A stretch of 64,000 nucleotides of DNA from an uncultured Candidatus Saccharibacteria bacterium (lineage in GTDB: Bacteria; Patescibacteriota; Minisyncoccia; Phycocordibacterales; UBA2100). Both the position numbers and the translations under genes were made by a program. Under the pieces are notes generated by a model. It worked only from the letters and a program-made list of their open reading frames with translations, had not been told where the DNA came from and searched no databases. Below, in pieces: positions 12,569 to 44,600 of this stretch (positions are counted from its first letter, which is position 1; every line of letters starts with the position of its first letter). The stretch lies in assembly GCA_964586255.1 (NCBI GenBank), contig CAZPGE010000004.1, positions 32,693 through 96,692 of the forward strand. The letters are read 5' to 3'.

Positions 12569-13291
12569 CTACGCGGCCAAACGCCGCTCGACGATGCTCA
12601 TGGTGTCTTCGAATTCATGCACGAGCATGTGGTACTTCTCGGCCAGGGGCAGGATGAAGTCTTTCGTCTCGGAGAGCTTCCTCCGGATGCGTGCCTCGTC
12701 TTGTCCCCAGATCGTGATGATGTTGTGAAGTCGCTCGGGCAGCTTCACGCAGAGCGCCTTCCTCGGCGCTTTGCTGAGTCGGCGATGATATCGGCGGTCG
12801 ATATCGTCGGACGTCTCGTGGCCTCCGTTGGCGACAGGCTTGGTGACCCACCAGACGAGATTCGCAATCTTCCTGTTGAACTCCGCCGCAATGCGGTTGA
12901 AGTTCCACTCATCGGGGCAGTCCTCGATGCAGTCGTGCATGAGAATCGCACAGATGATGTTGGCGTTGCGGACCCGCATGTACACGATGGCAATCAGCGC
13001 GCTCACCCGGAGATGTTCGAAATACTGATCTCCGTTGTCGCGCATCTTGTTGCGGAAGCTCCGCTCCATCGCGTCGTAGGCGCGCTCGATGAGCAGGTAC
13101 TGCTTGCTCAAGCACGGCCAAATTTCGCCGATGCGGGCGAAGAACGACTCTTTCGTCGCCGCCTTGTCGAGCACTCCTGCAAGTTTTTCCTCGAGCCACC
13201 GGGGCAGGTTGGTCCCCGACAGCAGTTGCTTCTTGGATTCTTTTTGGCGCGTACTCGCGCGGGATTGTATACCCGAATGGCTCTGTGCCAT
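12569..13291 (-). CDS. HD-domain (p)ppGpp hydrolase-like protein (hydrolase domain of the RelA/SpoT family only; small alarmone hydrolase-like)
   Basis: 'ILMHDCIEDC' (HD motif) and 'KLPERLHNIITI' (cf. SpoT 'KLADRLHNMRT'). High-GC gene with strong GC3 bias. Confidence 0.6.
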   Translation of the reverse strand: MAQSHSGIQSRASTRQKESKKQLLSGTNLPRWLEEKLAGVLDKAATKESFFARIGEIWPCLSKQYLLIERAYDAMERSFRNKMRDNGDQYFEHLRVSALIAIVYMRVRNANIICAILMHDCIEDCPDEWNFNRIAAEFNRKIANLVWWVTKPVANGGHETSDDIDRRYHRRLSKAPRKALCVKLPERLHNIITIWGQDEARIRRKLSETKDFILPLAEKYHMLVHEFEDTMSIVERRLAA

Positions 13292-13357: not shown

Positions 13358-13888
13358 TCACGCAGCGTTGGTGTGTACCTCTTCCACATCGTCGTACGCA
13401 TCGATTTCTTCGAGAATTTTCATGAGTGCCTCGTTCTCGCCTTCGGTGAGCTCCACGGTCGTCTTGGGTTCGTACCCTTCGGCGGTCTTTTCAAAGGCCC
13501 ACATCGCTGAACCGGGGGAAGCAAGCGCGATGCCGTTTTTACTGAGTAGGTGTTTTATCTCCTGCGCCGTCCTGTTGCGGCTATCGGTGAGGACATCTAT
13601 CAAGATAGCGGCGCCGCCCGGACCGTACGCTTCGTACGTAATGCTCTCAAGCGCAGCCGAATCCGCCGCGATACCTTTTGCCACGGCGCGGTCGATAGTG
13701 TCTTTGGGCATGTTTGTTTTCTTGCCGCGCTCAATCGCTGCGCGGAGGCCCGGCGCATTCACATCGCCCTTCGCCAGCTTGCTCTCTACCGCGATGCGCT
13801 TACCCATCTTGCCCCAGAGGTTGCTCTTGGCTTTGTCGGCAGCGCCTTTCTGTCTTTTTATTTGCGCCCATTTGTTGTGACCGGACAT
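13358..13888 (-). CDS. YebC/PmpR-family transcriptional regulator, unusually short (about 176 aa)
   Basis: 'MSGHNKWAQIKRQKGAADKAKSNLWGK' and 'YEAYGPGGAAILIDVLTDSRNRTAQEI' match YebC. The C-terminal domain is about 65 aa shorter than in E. coli YebC. Start taken at the internal ATG. Confidence 0.75.
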   Translation of the reverse strand: MSGHNKWAQIKRQKGAADKAKSNLWGKMGKRIAVESKLAKGDVNAPGLRAAIERGKKTNMPKDTIDRAVAKGIAADSAALESITYEAYGPGGAAILIDVLTDSRNRTAQEIKHLLSKNGIALASPGSAMWAFEKTAEGYEPKTTVELTEGENEALMKILEEIDAYDDVEEVHTNAA

Positions 13889-14027
13889 GAGAGTAGGGTA
13901 TAGGGGAAGGAAAGAAAATGCAAAATACTCCGGTGGGGTGCGTAGAATCCTTGTGTAATGGGGCGCGAGGAGTAGGCTTCCACCCAGGTCTCCCGGCCGG
14001 GAGCTCAAAAAGACTTGTGAGGCCGCA

Positions 14028-14258
14028 ATGCTTGCAATCCATCTTGCCGGAAACGGCCACCTGATGCTGACTGCCCCCGATGGTGCTACGCCATCGGACG
14101 AACAAATTCGTGCCGCCGCTTCCCGGATTTGTCCGGAAAGTAAACTCGAAGTTCTCAATCGTGGGTTCGGGGGAGGAGTCGTCTTCGATTTCCCCGACTC
14201 GTCGCCCGTGGATCACGCGCGTCTCCTGCTGCATCTCGACGCGCACCACATCGAGTAG
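14028..14258 (+). CDS. small acidic protein, paralog 1 of a tandem pair (76 aa)
   Basis: GAGG RBS 6 nt upstream. Conserved about 100-nt upstream leader shared with the 14433 gene. Followed by an intrinsic terminator. C-terminus 'DFPDSSPVDHARLLLHLD' is similar to paralog 2. Confidence 0.45.
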   Translation: MLAIHLAGNGHLMLTAPDGATPSDEQIRAAASRICPESKLEVLNRGFGGGVVFDFPDSSPVDHARLLLHLDAHHIE

Positions 14259-14289
14259 TACTCGCCTGCGTTGGTATTGGTATTGCGTA

Positions 14290-14321
14290 ACCGCCCATGA
14301 AAATGGGCGGTACTCTTTTTA
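14290..14321 (+). terminator. intrinsic terminator after small gene 1
   Basis: ACCGCCCAT-gaaa-ATGGGCGGT hairpin followed by ACTCTTTTTA. Confidence 0.6.
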
Positions 14322-14432
14322 TATACGTGCTGAATACACAGATTTTGCAAAATACTCCTTGTGCTCTTGCTCGCTGGCGGTACGCTTTGTGTAGGTCTCC
14401 CAATCGGGAGCTGAAAAAAGTGCGAGGTAGCC

Positions 14433-14639
14433 ATGTCTGCAATCCGCGCTATCGACGACCAGGCGCCCGACTCGAACGTTTCAATACTGCCGAAAGCAAA
14501 TCTCGGACAGGCAGCGACCCAGGTCAGCTCCAGCTCCGAGACCGACGTGTTCGGGTACGATCCTGATGATACGGATATCATCGATCTCCCCGGTTCGTCC
14601 GTCGGACGATTGCACCTGCTGCGATACCTCGACATCTGA
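14433..14639 (+). CDS. small acidic protein, paralog 2 of a tandem pair (68 aa)
   Basis: Same leader architecture (GCAAAATACTCC ... GGTCTCCCnnnCGGGAGCT ... GAGG-N6-ATG). C-terminus 'DLPGSSVGRLHLLRYLD'. Own terminator. Confidence 0.45.
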   Translation: MSAIRAIDDQAPDSNVSILPKANLGQAATQVSSSSETDVFGYDPDDTDIIDLPGSSVGRLHLLRYLDI

Positions 14640-14670
14640 GTCGAGACGAACTCCACCGGAGTTTACGGAA

Positions 14671-14699
14671 CCGCTCACGAAAGTGAGCGGCCCCCTTTT
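14671..14699 (+). terminator. intrinsic terminator after small gene 2
   Basis: CCGCTCAC-gaaa-GTGAGCGG hairpin followed by CCCCCTTTT. Confidence 0.6.
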
Positions 14700-14767
14700 G
14701 TGGTGTGTGCCAAAAAGAAAAGGCGGCCGCGATGCGGTCGCCCTCGAGTCTCGAAGCCCTGCGGAGC

Positions 14768-15265
14768 TCACGCTCCTTGGAATGCGTCCGCTACCACCTC
14801 CTCGCGCTGCGGCGGCTCCCAGTGGGCCGGCATCACGTTGCATGACGCGAAGTAAAATCCGCAGACGAAAAATATCGTGCCGAATATATTGCACACGTTG
14901 CCCATAATCGGTGTGAAGGGAAACACATTTACGATATTGAAGAGAAGCAGGAACGCAGGCACCACCCTGAAATACCAATGCGCTTTCGCGGGGTTCATGT
15001 GGTGCGGTCGCGTGACCACCAGATGCTCAGCATTCGAGAGCGACATCATCACGCCGAGCCAAGCGAGCCCCATGAGGGGGCCGAAGAATCTCAAAAGCGC
15101 CGGCTCCGTGAGTCCCCATCCGAGAGTGTGACACAGTGCTCCCAGCGTGTAGCCCGTGCGCGAAAGGTCGAAGCAGTTGTACCCGAATCGATACTCGATA
15201 CGCCATGCAAACGGTTCGGCGATTTCGTTGATGATGCGCTCGTCAGTGCGTGCAAAGAAGCCCAT
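14768..15265 (-). CDS. hypothetical integral membrane protein
   Basis: Four to five hydrophobic helices. No recognisable family. Confidence 0.45.
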   Translation of the reverse strand: MGFFARTDERIINEIAEPFAWRIEYRFGYNCFDLSRTGYTLGALCHTLGWGLTEPALLRFFGPLMGLAWLGVMMSLSNAEHLVVTRPHHMNPAKAHWYFRVVPAFLLLFNIVNVFPFTPIMGNVCNIFGTIFFVCGFYFASCNVMPAHWEPPQREEVVADAFQGA

Positions 15266-15640
15266 GGATTCCTCCCCGATTCACTGCGGGGAATATGGCA
15301 TGTGCGAGACTGGCCTGTCAAAGGCAGTGTTTATGCACAGGGATATCCACATACTTATACACTGCATATCCACTCGAAATCCCCCGAAATAGGGGAAAGT
15401 GCTCGATGTGCATGATTGCGCACGCATATATACTCACTTTATCGATGCGCTTTACCGTGCGTCGGTCGCCACCGAGAGACAAGTAGAAATACTTTTCTCC
15501 TCGGAGGCAGTTCCCTGGGTAAGTCCATGCGCAAGCTAGAGACAATGCGGGAGCAGTCGGTCAGAGCATTGAGGTGATAGCTGTAGTACGAGGAGATCGT
15601 ATCAAGCCGGACTGGAGGTATCATTCATCCGAAATGGCCG

Positions 15641-15678
15641 AAAACGAAAAGGGTCTCCGCAAGGAGACCCTTTTCGCT
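15641..15678. terminator. bidirectional intrinsic terminator inside a ~490-bp non-coding stretch
   Basis: A-tract, GGGTCTCC-gcaa-GGAGACCC (15651-15670), then TTTT. Confidence 0.45.
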
Positions 15679-15755
15679 ACCGTGCGTGTGCATTCATTGT
15701 ACAGACCGCATGTGAGGGGACACGCTGCTTATCCCCACACACGCCCGGCCTCAAT

Positions 15756-16097
15756 TTGATGGAAGATAGTTTGGAACATGTGCAGCACCTCTTCGACTCT
15801 TCGGGGTTTTGGATAGCTTTTCGTTTTGATCGCAATATTTTCGATACCGTCGGCAACTGGGTAGGGTGGCTTCCTTTTGAAGATGACCACGCTGAGGTCC
15901 ACGACACCAAGGGTACCTACCTCGGCCACATCTATCCCGGCAATCGCTTCTATCGTAATTTCAGATTCATTCGCCGCGAGGCTATCGAGAAGCCCTCACG
16001 CCCCGCCTACATCCGCCGCCAAACATTCCCCGGCTCTATCGGCCCTTCACGGCTCCCCATCGGCTGCAGCGACATCCGTCTAAGCGCGCATGTGTGA
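15756..16097 (+). CDS. hypothetical protein (113 aa)
   Basis: ORF with gene-like mixed composition. No recognisable motif. Confidence 0.3.
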   Translation: MMEDSLEHVQHLFDSSGFWIAFRFDRNIFDTVGNWVGWLPFEDDHAEVHDTKGTYLGHIYPGNRFYRNFRFIRREAIEKPSRPAYIRRQTFPGSIGPSRLPIGCSDIRLSAHV

Positions 16098-16197
16098 GCT
16101 AAGGAGCGCGGCCCTGATTACTTCTCGGCGCTGAATCTTCCGCAAATCTTCATGGAGAGAGGGTTAGGCTGAGGGCTTACGATAACTTCTTATCTCC

Positions 16198-16560
16198 ATG
16201 ACAACCGATGATTCGCAAAAAGGTGTAAAGCCTCTCTACAGAGGCACGCAGGTAGTGTGGTACATATTCTCAGTCGTCGAAGTGCTCCTGGTATTCCGCT
16301 TCTTGCTCAAGCTTCTTGGTGCAAATCCGGAGGCAGGATTCACCGCGTTTATTTACACGCTCAGCTATCCGCTCGCTGCACCATTTCTCTATGTGGTGCG
16401 TTCGACACAAGTATCGGGAAGTGTGTTTGAATGGACCACTCTGCTCGCCATGCTCGTGTATTGGATAGTCGCCTGGGGGATTGTGCGCCTGTTTGTTATG
16501 GGCAAACCAGTTTCACGCGCAGAGGCCAACGTGAAGCTCCAAGCGCAAGACGTCGCATAG
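16198..16560 (+). CDS. YggT/Ycf19-family small membrane protein
   Basis: 'VVEVLLVFRFLLKLLGANP' is the YggT hallmark. Two TM helices. Confidence 0.6.
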   Translation: MTTDDSQKGVKPLYRGTQVVWYIFSVVEVLLVFRFLLKLLGANPEAGFTAFIYTLSYPLAAPFLYVVRSTQVSGSVFEWTTLLAMLVYWIVAWGIVRLFVMGKPVSRAEANVKLQAQDVA

Positions 16561-16670
16561 CGACTGCTCAAAAAAATTCTTGTCCGCACGACAGTTGCCT
16601 CGATTGCACTTTCTGCTATGGTCGAGGCGGATATACCAGGTCTCGAACATGGTCATGAGGGAGAACCGCG

Positions 16671-16991
16671 ATGAGGAAATGGGGAACGACACAGCTAGGC
16701 TGGGGGCCGCACCGCAGTGTGGCGGGAGGACGAATTCAACGTAAGCTTTCCCGCCTGAGCGTCCGCGGGAAGTCACTTCCCGATGATTCCGGTCTAAAGG
16801 CCATTTTTGACGCGGTCGTCGCAGGCCGTGAGATTCAGATCGTAGAGCGCGACAGTCGATCGGTGACGCTCGAAGCTCCAGACGATGACGCAGTCTGGAA
16901 CCTGCTCTTGCCGAAAATTGCGGAAGCCATCGACGCTCCGGCAATTGCGGAAAGAAAGGCACGGCAGCAGACACGGCGTAGACGGCATTGA
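16671..16991 (+). CDS. hypothetical small basic protein
   Basis: GAGGGAGA RBS upstream. Intrinsic terminator immediately downstream. Confidence 0.35.
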   Translation: MRKWGTTQLGWGPHRSVAGGRIQRKLSRLSVRGKSLPDDSGLKAIFDAVVAGREIQIVERDSRSVTLEAPDDDAVWNLLLPKIAEAIDAPAIAERKARQQTRRRRH

Positions 16992-17007
16992 AGAAATGCC
17001 AAGGAGA

Positions 17008-17033
17008 GCGGGCCTCGTGCCCGCCTTTTTCTT
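17008..17033 (+). terminator. intrinsic terminator (GCGGGC-ctcgt-GCCCGC then CTTTTT)
   Basis: Hairpin plus T-tract. Lies between the convergent 16671 gene and ruvB. Confidence 0.5.
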
Positions 17034-17056
17034 TGGGAAAGTCCCGGAAGGGCGCG

Positions 17057-44151: not shown

Positions 44152-44480
44152 ACTCTCTAACGCACATATGGAATTCCCTGAGGACCTTTTATGAGGCCCG
44201 TCACGAACCGGAGAATATGCGCCCTCTTGCAGAGGTGTATTGGCGCGTGCTTCTCGTGTCCGCGCTCGTCGCCCTTGCCGGGATACTTGCGTTTGGTGTG
44301 TGGGAATTTATCGGCGTCACACAGAAGCTCAATGCGGGCGCAGGCCTCAAGAGCTCGGAGCAATCGGACGTACTTTCGAGAAAGGAGCTTACTGAAGTGC
44401 TCGATCTCTACCAGGCGCGCCAAGCCGAATTTGATGCAGCGAAAAGGAGCAGGGCGACAGTACCTGACCCTTCCAGATAA
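44148..44480 (+). CDS. small membrane protein (possible pilus-assembly accessory, PilP-position)
   Basis: Overlaps the pilO stop. Single TM. Confidence 0.4.
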   Translation: MNSLTHIWNSLRTFYEARHEPENMRPLAEVYWRVLLVSALVALAGILAFGVWEFIGVTQKLNAGAGLKSSEQSDVLSRKELTEVLDLYQARQAEFDAAKRSRATVPDPSR

Positions 44481-44528
44481 TTGACCGCGCCCGTCTGTGC
44501 GGTTACGCTGTGCATGTTCTCGGAGTCT

Positions 44529-44600
44529 GCCCTCGTAGCACAATGGATAGTGCAGGACTCTTCTAAGGTCTTGATGGGGGTTCGATTCCCTCCGAGGGCA
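44529..44600 (+). tRNA. tRNA-Arg (anticodon TCT)
   Basis: Acceptor GCCCTCG/CGAGGGC, D-loop AATGGATA, anticodon loop CTTCTAA, T-loop TTCGATT. Confidence 0.85.

Follow-up and report, generated by a model that had tools for sequence, protein, structure and literature searches.

Where two short open reading frames (ORFs) stand side by side on one strand, each between what look like its own promoter and its own terminator, the question arises whether a single small gene has been copied together with all of its control signals and, if so, what the signals and the products are likely to do. Such a pair lies in a 64,000-nucleotide (nt) stretch of contig CAZPGE010000004.1 (assembly GCA_964586255.1, listed under an uncultured Candidatus Saccharibacteria bacterium), which is referred to here as the window; the genome is close kin of 'Parcubacteria group bacterium Athens0416_74'. 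A description made from the letters alone (hereafter the sequence-only reading) had reported two plus-strand ORFs of 76 and 68 amino acids (aa) as paralogous, independent cassettes about 427 bp apart. Both ORFs are present as described, and each is accompanied by its own leader, terminator and putative promoter. It is proposed here, with a probability of roughly 0.6, that a whole monocistronic transcription unit has been duplicated in tandem within one narrow Parcubacteria sub-lineage; in kind, the finding is a small-protein gene that was duplicated within one lineage and that carries the usual bacterial expression signals. The parts of the two cassettes are as follows.

13920-13931, plus strand: upstream shared block GCAAAATACTCC of cassette 1, overlapping the likely minus-strand -35 box (TTTGCA) of the neighbouring gene yebC
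13951-13978, plus strand: putative ORF1 promoter, -35 box TTGTGT at 13951-13956, 16-nt spacer, -10 box TAGGCT at 13973-13978
13986-14027, plus strand: putative ORF1 5' untranslated region (5'UTR) of 42 nt, starting at the invariant A13986, with the Shine-Dalgarno (SD) sequence GAGG at 14019-14022
13990-13994 facing 13999-14003, plus strand: core of the ORF1 leader hairpin (C arm and G arm), loop 13995-13998, then an A-rich spacer
14028-14258, plus strand: ORF1, 76 aa, isoelectric point (pI) 5.5, a predicted alpha/beta domain
14290-14321, plus strand: ORF1 intrinsic terminator, 9-bp stem ACCGCCCAT/ATGGGCGGT, loop GAAA, tail ACTCTTTTTA
14347-14358, plus strand: upstream shared block GCAAAATACTCC of cassette 2, directly abutting the -35 region of ORF2
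14359-14386, plus strand: putative ORF2 promoter, -35 box TTGTGC at 14359-14364, 16-nt spacer, -10 box TACGCT at 14381-14386
14393-14432, plus strand: putative ORF2 5'UTR of 40 nt, starting at A14393, with an A-run and the SD sequence GAGG at 14424-14427
14397-14401 facing 14406-14410, plus strand: core of the ORF2 leader hairpin, loop 14402-14405
14433-14639, plus strand: ORF2, 68 aa, pI 4.05, a paralogue of ORF1
14671-14699, plus strand: ORF2 terminator-like hairpin, 8-bp stem CCGCUCAC/GUGAGCGG (14671-14690), loop GAAA, then CCCCCUUUU

Common descent of the two cassettes extends to the promoter, the leader, the coding sequence and the terminator. Within the window, the block GCAAAATACTCC has just two exact copies, at 13920 and 14347 (spacing 427 bp). 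The leader pattern AGGTCTCCC-N3-CGGGAGCT also has just two, at 13986 and 14393, where chance alone would give 0.15 matches. A covariance model built from 12 leader variants and run within the 64-kb window recovered both cassettes at 87.5 and 85.6 bits, the next best position scoring 12.6 bits, and neither this model nor the pattern search revealed a further copy. On segment-wise alignment of cassette 1 with cassette 2, the leader, the coding sequence and the terminator each beat 200 of 200 shuffles. The terminator stems are likewise homologous (CCGCCCAU/AUGGGCGG versus CCGCUCAC/GUGAGCGG) and differ by two double compensatory changes. The shared upstream block, earlier estimated at about 100 nt, is real, but the part common to all homologues measures only about 80 nt and extends from the -35 box to the ATG.

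The similarity of the C-termini, also pointed out by the sequence-only reading, is invisible to BLASTP, which detects no similarity between ORF1 and ORF2, but is recovered at the level of profiles as paralogy with a shared C-terminal motif. Alignment of the ORF1 family to the ORF2 family with hhalign covers 46 columns with E = 2.7e-6 and a probability of 88.5-89.2%, and its score of 34.2 compares with a maximum of 17.9 in 200 column shuffles. The aligned region spans the ORF1 helix, beta3-beta4 and the C-terminal helix.

Two distant loci carry relatives of ORF1. In L016 an ORF1 homologue (P0008, 49% identity) with the same leader occupies the same RuvC-VIT1-Grx-YebC synteny, with no cassette 2 downstream, and in L017 a homologue (P0009, 40% identity) with the same leader is found in a different gene context with no yebC nearby. 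Since both of these homologues carry the leader and the first does so in a locus that lacks the second cassette, the ORF1 unit is evidently the older of the two, and the coding sequence of the second copy has diverged fast. The duplicated segment seems to have started within the yebC promoter region, and the upstream block of cassette 2 is probably a relic of a duplicated yebC-promoter segment. The GCAAAATAC block, which overlaps the likely yebC promoter, is kept in cassette 1, drifts in cassette 2 and is absent from L017. Its core in cassette 1 (AAAATGCAAAA, then TAC) is kept in close relatives, with a 10-nt insertion inside the block in L011, and in cassette 2 the block comes to abut the -35 region because the 19 nt that follow it in cassette 1 are missing there.

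The comparison with syntenic loci from five related metagenomic strains (L001/L014, L003, L004, L011 and L015) establishes that ORF1 and ORF2 are genuine protein-coding genes under purifying selection, because the sense frame has a low ratio of non-synonymous to synonymous substitution rates (dN/dS), the substitutions fall on third codon positions and the indels are in frame. Between the window and L001, the substitutions at codon positions 1/2/3 number 6/4/22 in ORF1 and 16/8/29 in ORF2. By the Nei-Gojobori method, the sense-frame dN/dS is 0.10-0.15 for ORF1 among the related strains and 0.19-0.22 for ORF2 against divergent relatives, dS being 0.5-0.97 in the divergent-relative comparisons of the two ORFs. 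Length differences of ORF2 among the relatives are in-frame indels. For each ORF, dN/dS exceeds 1 in three of the five non-sense frames; one antisense frame of ORF2 gives 0.75-1.5, and the wobble-matched antisense frame alone is low. The proposal that the antisense ORFs might be the true genes was checked and is rejected, as these frames contain stops in some relatives, have a dN/dS slightly above that of the sense frame and would also cross the leaders and terminators. One public annotation (L001) places the ORF2 gene on the antisense strand, a call that is wrong by the present evidence.

The control signals were compared in an alignment of 12 distinct leaders, cassette 1 being represented from seven loci and cassette 2 from five. 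They have a common order: TTGT(G/A)Y, a 16-nt spacer, TA(C/G)(G/T)CT, 6-7 nt and an invariant AGG, then the hairpin, whose 5' arm reads YYUCYC and whose loop measures 4 nt, and past the loop an invariant (C)CGGGAGCU, a stretch rich in A and GAGG-N5-ATG (a distance earlier given as N6). The invariant AGG sits 7-8 nt past the -10 box. The promoter boxes are kept in 12 of 12 leaders, those of the distant L016 and L017 included, with the TTG and TAnnnT core positions retained; the 16-nt spacing is fixed and the spacer itself varies, in its first half in cassette 1 and at several positions in cassette 2. Each cassette would be transcribed from a sigma-70-type promoter, TTGTGY-N16-TA(G/C)GCT, with the start at the invariant A (13986 and 14393). 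Promoters of this type are suggested because in L017, with its unrelated upstream context, the similarity begins at the -35 box, and because a tRNA gene of the same window, at 44529, has a TACGCT box in its candidate promoter (TTGACC-N17-TACGCT, upstream at ~44465-44528). Other tRNA genes of the window are preceded by the boxes TAGGAT, TATATT and TATAAA, and taken together these suggest that the organism may use -10 boxes of the TAnnnT type, G+C-containing ones included.

Related metagenomic strains of this lineage of the Candidate Phyla Radiation (CPR) carry homologues of the peptides with a conserved leader. Between strains with a dS of 0.5-0.9 the leader is identical at 71-73 of 80 positions, and over the start site and the hairpin 18 of 21 positions are identical in L017, where the protein has fallen to 40% identity. 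Synonymous sites have changed much more than the non-coding control parts. With the leader so constrained and both ORFs under purifying selection, the misgiving that neither might be conserved in related genomes is dispelled.

Downstream of each ORF, a G+C-rich stem-loop with a T-run, the usual signature of a rho-independent terminator, is present, and transcription of each cassette would end at its own hairpin. The ORF1 terminator was called by a scan (tail CTCTTTTTA, fold z = -2.8) and is 91-100% conserved in the relatives, against 47-67% for the spacer just past the stop codon. The ORF2 hairpin, with a CCCCC-TTTT tail (CCCCCTTTT) and a fold z of -2.9, is 94-100% conserved.

Between promoter and start codon, the 5'UTR of 40-42 nt is predicted to form a G+C-rich stem-loop of 5-7 bp almost at its 5' end, after which an A-rich single-stranded stretch and the GAGG Shine-Dalgarno sequence, 5 nt before the ATG, would be left accessible. 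The CUCCC-N4-GGGAG hairpin begins 4 nt past the putative start site, a position that would fit a 5'-end stem-loop better than a switch. All 72 of 72 cells (12 distinct leaders, 6 pairs) hold standard pairs, and the only two arm changes are independent, one-sided C-to-U changes in the 5' arm (L016 and L017), by which G-U pairs are kept. A 5'-end stem-loop combined with an accessible A-rich and SD region stabilises short mRNAs, as in the leaders of E. coli ompA and of B. subtilis aprE and ermC. The cassettes resemble these stabilisers in the short G+C-rich hairpin within a few nt of the putative 5' end, in the A-rich single-stranded segment and strong SD that follow it, and in mRNAs that would be short, monocistronic and terminator-ended; they differ from them in a 3' arm and flanks far more conserved than stabilisers require. 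By this analogy, the most likely role of the stem-loop is to protect a short mRNA from 5'-end-dependent decay. It would also give both paralogues equal expression control, and a sequence-specific factor may recognise its invariant 3' arm, CCGGGAGCU, as well.

Several points weigh against this picture of the duplicated unit and its expression. The promoter boxes match the consensus at three of six positions each and were not called by a consensus scan, and the transcript starts and ends are deduced from the sequence. Both terminators had been described as textbook examples, which holds for cassette 1; that of cassette 2, although conserved, has a weak T-run of just four T, too short for the scan to call it. 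No double-sided covariation was found in the hairpin over 12 leaders and 6 pairs, for which the shuffle control is uninformative, and its folding is no better than that of shuffled sequences (z = +0.4 and -0.5 for the two leaders). The data thus allow an RNA structure in the leader but do not prove one. The stabiliser role, the most likely one for the hairpin, is drawn from analogy, and the near-invariance of the 3' arm exceeds the need of a generic stabiliser. On the protein side, no partner gene is conserved, the adjacent 165-aa membrane ORF being absent from L011 and L015, and a partner-binding function of ORF1 and ORF2 is speculative.

A rival reading takes the conserved leader as a true cis-regulatory RNA, whether a thermosensor, a small switch or a site bound by a protein, through which translation or decay would be controlled; in a variant of this idea the leader would be bound by ORF1 in an autoregulatory manner, with ORF2 under the same control. 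Even where protein identity is down to 40%, hairpin and flanks hardly vary, and 11 of the 12 leaders have the same 3' arm, CCGGGAGCU, beyond generic stem needs. As read from the sequence, another pairing partner for the 5' arm of cassette 1 (GGUCUC) could be the SD region GAGGCC, and RNAalifold proposes a GCUUC/GAGGC helix around the hairpin. However, the alternative pairing is weak in cassette 2, and the enclosing SD-pairing helix would require a start site upstream of the apparent -10 box and is disrupted in L016 and L017, which have the most divergent leaders, by which an SD-sequestering helix is rejected as a conserved feature. A 40-nt UTR is, in addition, too small for a structure the size of a ligand pocket. 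A search of the leader against Rfam returned no matching family: in the whole window the Rfam covariance models detect nothing at the gathering threshold but tRNAs, and the best match within 13700-14900, STnc320 at 28.7 bits against a gathering value of 50, lies on the minus strand over the ORF2 terminator and appears to be a generic terminator match. Strong conservation and constant pairing potential speak for the earlier suggestion of a cis-regulatory hairpin; double-sided covariation, an Rfam match and a thermodynamic excess are lacking. A regulatory RNA of this sort is considered unlikely.

The same CTCCC-N4-GGGAG sequence could instead act at the level of DNA, as an operator for a dimeric transcription factor on the start site. 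It forms an inverted repeat just downstream of the putative start, which is a typical repressor position, and it is conserved with no covariation. The half-sites are, however, only 5 bp long around a variable 4-bp centre, and no regulator gene is conserved next to the cassettes (L017 has no yebC nearby). With the C-to-T changes of L016 and L017 the DNA is no longer palindromic, yet the plus-strand RNA retains G-U pairs, and therefore RNA is mildly favoured over a DNA operator, which is rated quite unlikely. The 5'-end stem-loop, with stabilisation as its probable function, is the interpretation retained here.

The ORF1 product is predicted by AlphaFold2 from the single sequence to fold as beta-beta-alpha-beta-beta-alpha (predicted local distance difference test score, pLDDT, 79.7; predicted template modelling score, pTM, 0.66), with the motif S-x-V-D-H-A-R-L-L-x-x-L-D in the C-terminal helix. 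Its grand average of hydropathicity (GRAVY) is 0.01 and it contains one Cys. The homologues of ORF1 are P0001, P0002, P0008 and P0009. An exhaustive HMMER search of 1.84 billion representatives yielded only P0002, P0008 and P0009 as small homologues, together with three repeat proteins, one of which, P0010, consists of five tandem Prok_Ub/PRTRC_C domains. Aligned by hhalign to the P0010 repeats, the ORF1 family reaches a probability of 92.8% and scores 36.8, where shuffles attain at most 15.6; the database E-value of P0010 is inflated by its five near-identical repeats. P0010 is a metagenomic protein of 294 aa in which the five domains stand head to tail and each ends in GTKG(A)(A/G)G, an arrangement like that of polyubiquitin.

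ORF1 shares with Prok_Ub (PF14454) and PRTRC_C (TIGR03738) the element order beta-beta-alpha-beta-beta and a motif of the helix and second hairpin, D-G-x-T/S-x-D-E-Q-I ... I-x-P-E ... V-x-N-R-x-G-x-V-x-F. It differs from them in falling below the curated Pfam and NCBIfam cut-offs, the sole link being the indirect one through P0010: the Prok_Ub/PRTRC_C models give no match at E <= 1 for ORF1 or at E <= 10 for seven family members. After beta4 the chain continues as DSSPVDHARLLLHLDAHHIE, a predicted helix (residues 60-72), and there is no terminal Gly or GTKG tail. Nor are E1 (ThiF), E2 or JAB genes found among those called within about 6 kb of ORF1. Ubiquitin-like ancestry of ORF1 is accordingly suggested as a lead and not as membership, at roughly even odds, and the product may be described as compact and of alpha/beta type, perhaps a degenerate beta-grasp of the prokaryotic ubiquitin-like kind, devoid of the conjugation tail. 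ACT-like and ferredoxin-like domains (VC0802, PDB 1zvp; the regulatory domain of aspartokinase) were also compared and would differ by a circular permutation, beta-beta-alpha-beta-beta-alpha in ORF1 versus beta-alpha-beta-beta-alpha-beta; the model used is a single-sequence one, and Foldseek returned nothing with E <= 0.001 for it in PDB or among the viral models of BFVD. Searches of Pfam, NCBIfam, PHROGs, PADLOC and PDB sequences yielded nothing for ORF1 or ORF2. Metal binding through the His-rich C-terminus of ORF1 was considered and rejected, only His63 being kept in distant homologues.

For the ORF2 product, AlphaFold2 gives a pLDDT of 53.6, a pTM of 0.12 and no secondary structure, and the protein is probably largely disordered. 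It is acidic, with a GRAVY of -0.16 and no Cys, and its non-synonymous rate is about twice that of ORF1. Its N-terminus retains M-S-A-I-R and its C-terminus the IIDLPGSSVGRLHLLRYLD motif, and its conserved islands are M-S-A-I-R-A-I-D, P-D-S-N-V-S-I-L-P and G-Y-D-P-D-D-x-D-I-I-D-L-P-G-S-x-V-G-R-L-x-L-R-x-L-D, the last of which contains the motif held in common with ORF1, D-x-P-x-S-S-x-V-x-x-R-L-x-L-L-x-x-L-D. The two products, earlier described as small acidic proteins, are neutral to acidic. Both products are inferred to be small cytoplasmic proteins. That they bind a common partner, or each other, via the shared strand-helix motif is the most economical guess, and a role as regulators is possible.

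Two adjacent small genes, one of them encoding an acidic product that has no confident predicted fold, invite comparison with type II toxin-antitoxin modules, in which case the folded ORF1 would be neutralised, or competed with, by the apparently disordered ORF2 with its C-terminal binding helix; the pair borders on a variable island. In agreement with such an antagonism, ORF2 evolves faster, its alleles recombine independently of those of ORF1, and the region downstream is variable, with defence-like and transposase insertions in relatives. The resemblance ends there: a terminator and a second promoter separate the genes, which would therefore not be co-transcribed as an operon, the products are paralogues, L016 has ORF1 with no ORF2, no toxin-like fold is predicted and no known toxin or antitoxin family is matched in PADLOC, PHROGs, Pfam or NCBIfam. 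On balance, a toxin-antitoxin-like or antagonistic pair is very improbable.

The sequence-only reading had also considered secreted peptides or precursors of ribosomally synthesised and post-translationally modified peptides (RiPPs), for which the small acidic products, the duplicated divergent genes and the coding-sparse flanks could be cited. The N-termini are, however, not signal-peptide-like (by inspection only, no predictor having been run), the GRAVY values are close to 0, ORF1 is predicted to be a folded domain, and the Cys count is one in ORF1 and zero in ORF2. The genes called within about 6 kb include no radical-SAM enzyme, YcaO, lanthionine synthetase, protease or ABC exporter, and the best-kept parts are the N-terminus and the C-terminal helix rather than a Cys/Ser/Thr-rich core. 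The idea is regarded as extremely improbable.

A more far-reaching proposal joins the leader to the proteins: the hairpin (AGG-YCUCCC-N4-GGGAGCU) would be the recognition site of a small RNA-binding protein, ORF1 itself, acting as a degenerate ubiquitin-like or ferredoxin-like autoregulator, with ORF2 as a co-controlled competitor through its C-terminal helix and the circuit perhaps tied to a candidate RNA of about 350 nt located downstream (see below). This is very unlikely; if true, it would constitute a new CPR-specific small RNA-protein regulatory module.

The family has a very restricted distribution. Among 5.8 billion proteins, the ORF1 family comprises four 90%-identity clusters and ORF2 five, and the exact leader pattern has one true match in 185,579 species genomes, the Athens0416_74 Parcubacteria genome; the other 19 matches were rejected as chance occurrences, mostly in G+C-rich genomes and with no flanking similarity. 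A protein-guided scan of JGI metagenomes returned one locus, already known, and the phage and plasmid collections gave no match to the cassettes. The protein family is undescribed and extremely narrow, and its biological weight is probably local.

Among the related strains the cassettes occur as mosaic alleles. The window and L003 are 99% identical in ORF2 and 84% in ORF1, and L003 and L004 are 99% identical in ORF1 and 72% in ORF2, and recombination between strains has reshuffled the two cassettes independently.

The remaining features of the neighbourhood are listed below.

13358-13888, minus strand: short YebC/TACO1 family protein (176 aa; Pfam PF20772 and PF01709), divergent neighbour of cassette 1
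14768-15265, minus strand: membrane ORF of 165 aa with no family match, convergent to ORF2
15335-15680, plus strand: candidate structured RNA of about 350 nt, in a conserved block that reaches 15755, about 600 bp downstream of the cassettes

The adjoining gene is, as had been stated, a divergent short YebC, confirmed by its Pfam TACO1/YebC assignment. YebC/TACO1 proteins are now viewed chiefly as translation factors. There is no evidence that yebC takes part in the cassette system, for which it is context only, and the ORF1 homologue in L017 has other neighbours. The gene itself is seemingly leaderless: on the minus strand, 13889-13924 reads TTTGCA-N16-TATACC-N8-ATG, with the start at 13888, no Shine-Dalgarno sequence lies between the -10-like box and the ATG, and the block is nearly invariant among close relatives. 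The region is not G+C-rich relative to its neighbourhood, as had been claimed, its G+C content being 0.53-0.60 against 0.50-0.62 in the surroundings. Up to about 6 kb away in both directions, the called genes encode DnaN, PBP1, RuvC, VIT1, Grx, HD_4, YebC and the membrane ORF, and the same flanks also hold Bflower, YggT, RuvB and T2SSE, along with small ORFs that have no Pfam match.

The stretch from ORF2 to ruvB (14640-17056) is a variable hotspot among the relatives, occupied by a 486-aa SLFN_AlbA_2/HATPase_c_4 gene in L003, by an AAA_15/AAA_21 ATPase in L001 and by an IS1595-type transposase in L004; from L011 and L015 the membrane ORF (14768-15265) is entirely missing. On the other side of the cassettes, the HD_4 gene (12569-13291, minus strand) is 92% identical in L011 and has no blastn match in L001, L003, L004 and L014, where both flanking genes are 85-93% identical; in L003 a 279-aa plus-strand ORF with no Pfam match stands in its place. 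This locus appears to represent an allelic replacement or a very divergent allele. The membrane ORF has a convergent terminator at 14706-14777 on the minus strand (GGGCGACCGCAUCGCGGCCGCC, then UUUUCUUUUU), back to back with the weak ORF2 terminator, and therefore weak Rfam matches to suhB/mmgR and Xoo2 arise here.

The nominally intergenic block 15335-15755 is 95-98% identical in L001, L003, L011 and L014, against 67-95% for the flanking genes. On the plus strand, 15335-15680 folds at -131.3 kcal/mol versus -98.5 +/- 4.8 for shuffles (z = -6.8), the minus strand giving z = -2.65. At the end of the segment stands a 13-bp hairpin (15647-15676), in which relatives show two double compensatory changes. 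It matches no Rfam, tRNA or tmRNA model, is present as a single copy in the window and is absent from the phage and plasmid collections. The segment looks like an undescribed structured RNA, and it is probably of more interest than the duplicated cassettes.

For specialists, the interest of the cassettes is limited to the possible Prok_Ub descent of ORF1 and to the unusually constrained leader. The antisense miscall of ORF2 in L001 indicates the value of such comparisons for the annotation of small genes in CPR genomes. The locus affords a first empirical view of how promoters, leaders and terminators are built in Parcubacteria, and it offers a clean natural case of whole-unit duplication in which the control parts have stayed nearly constant and one coding copy has decayed to a product for which no confident fold is predicted.

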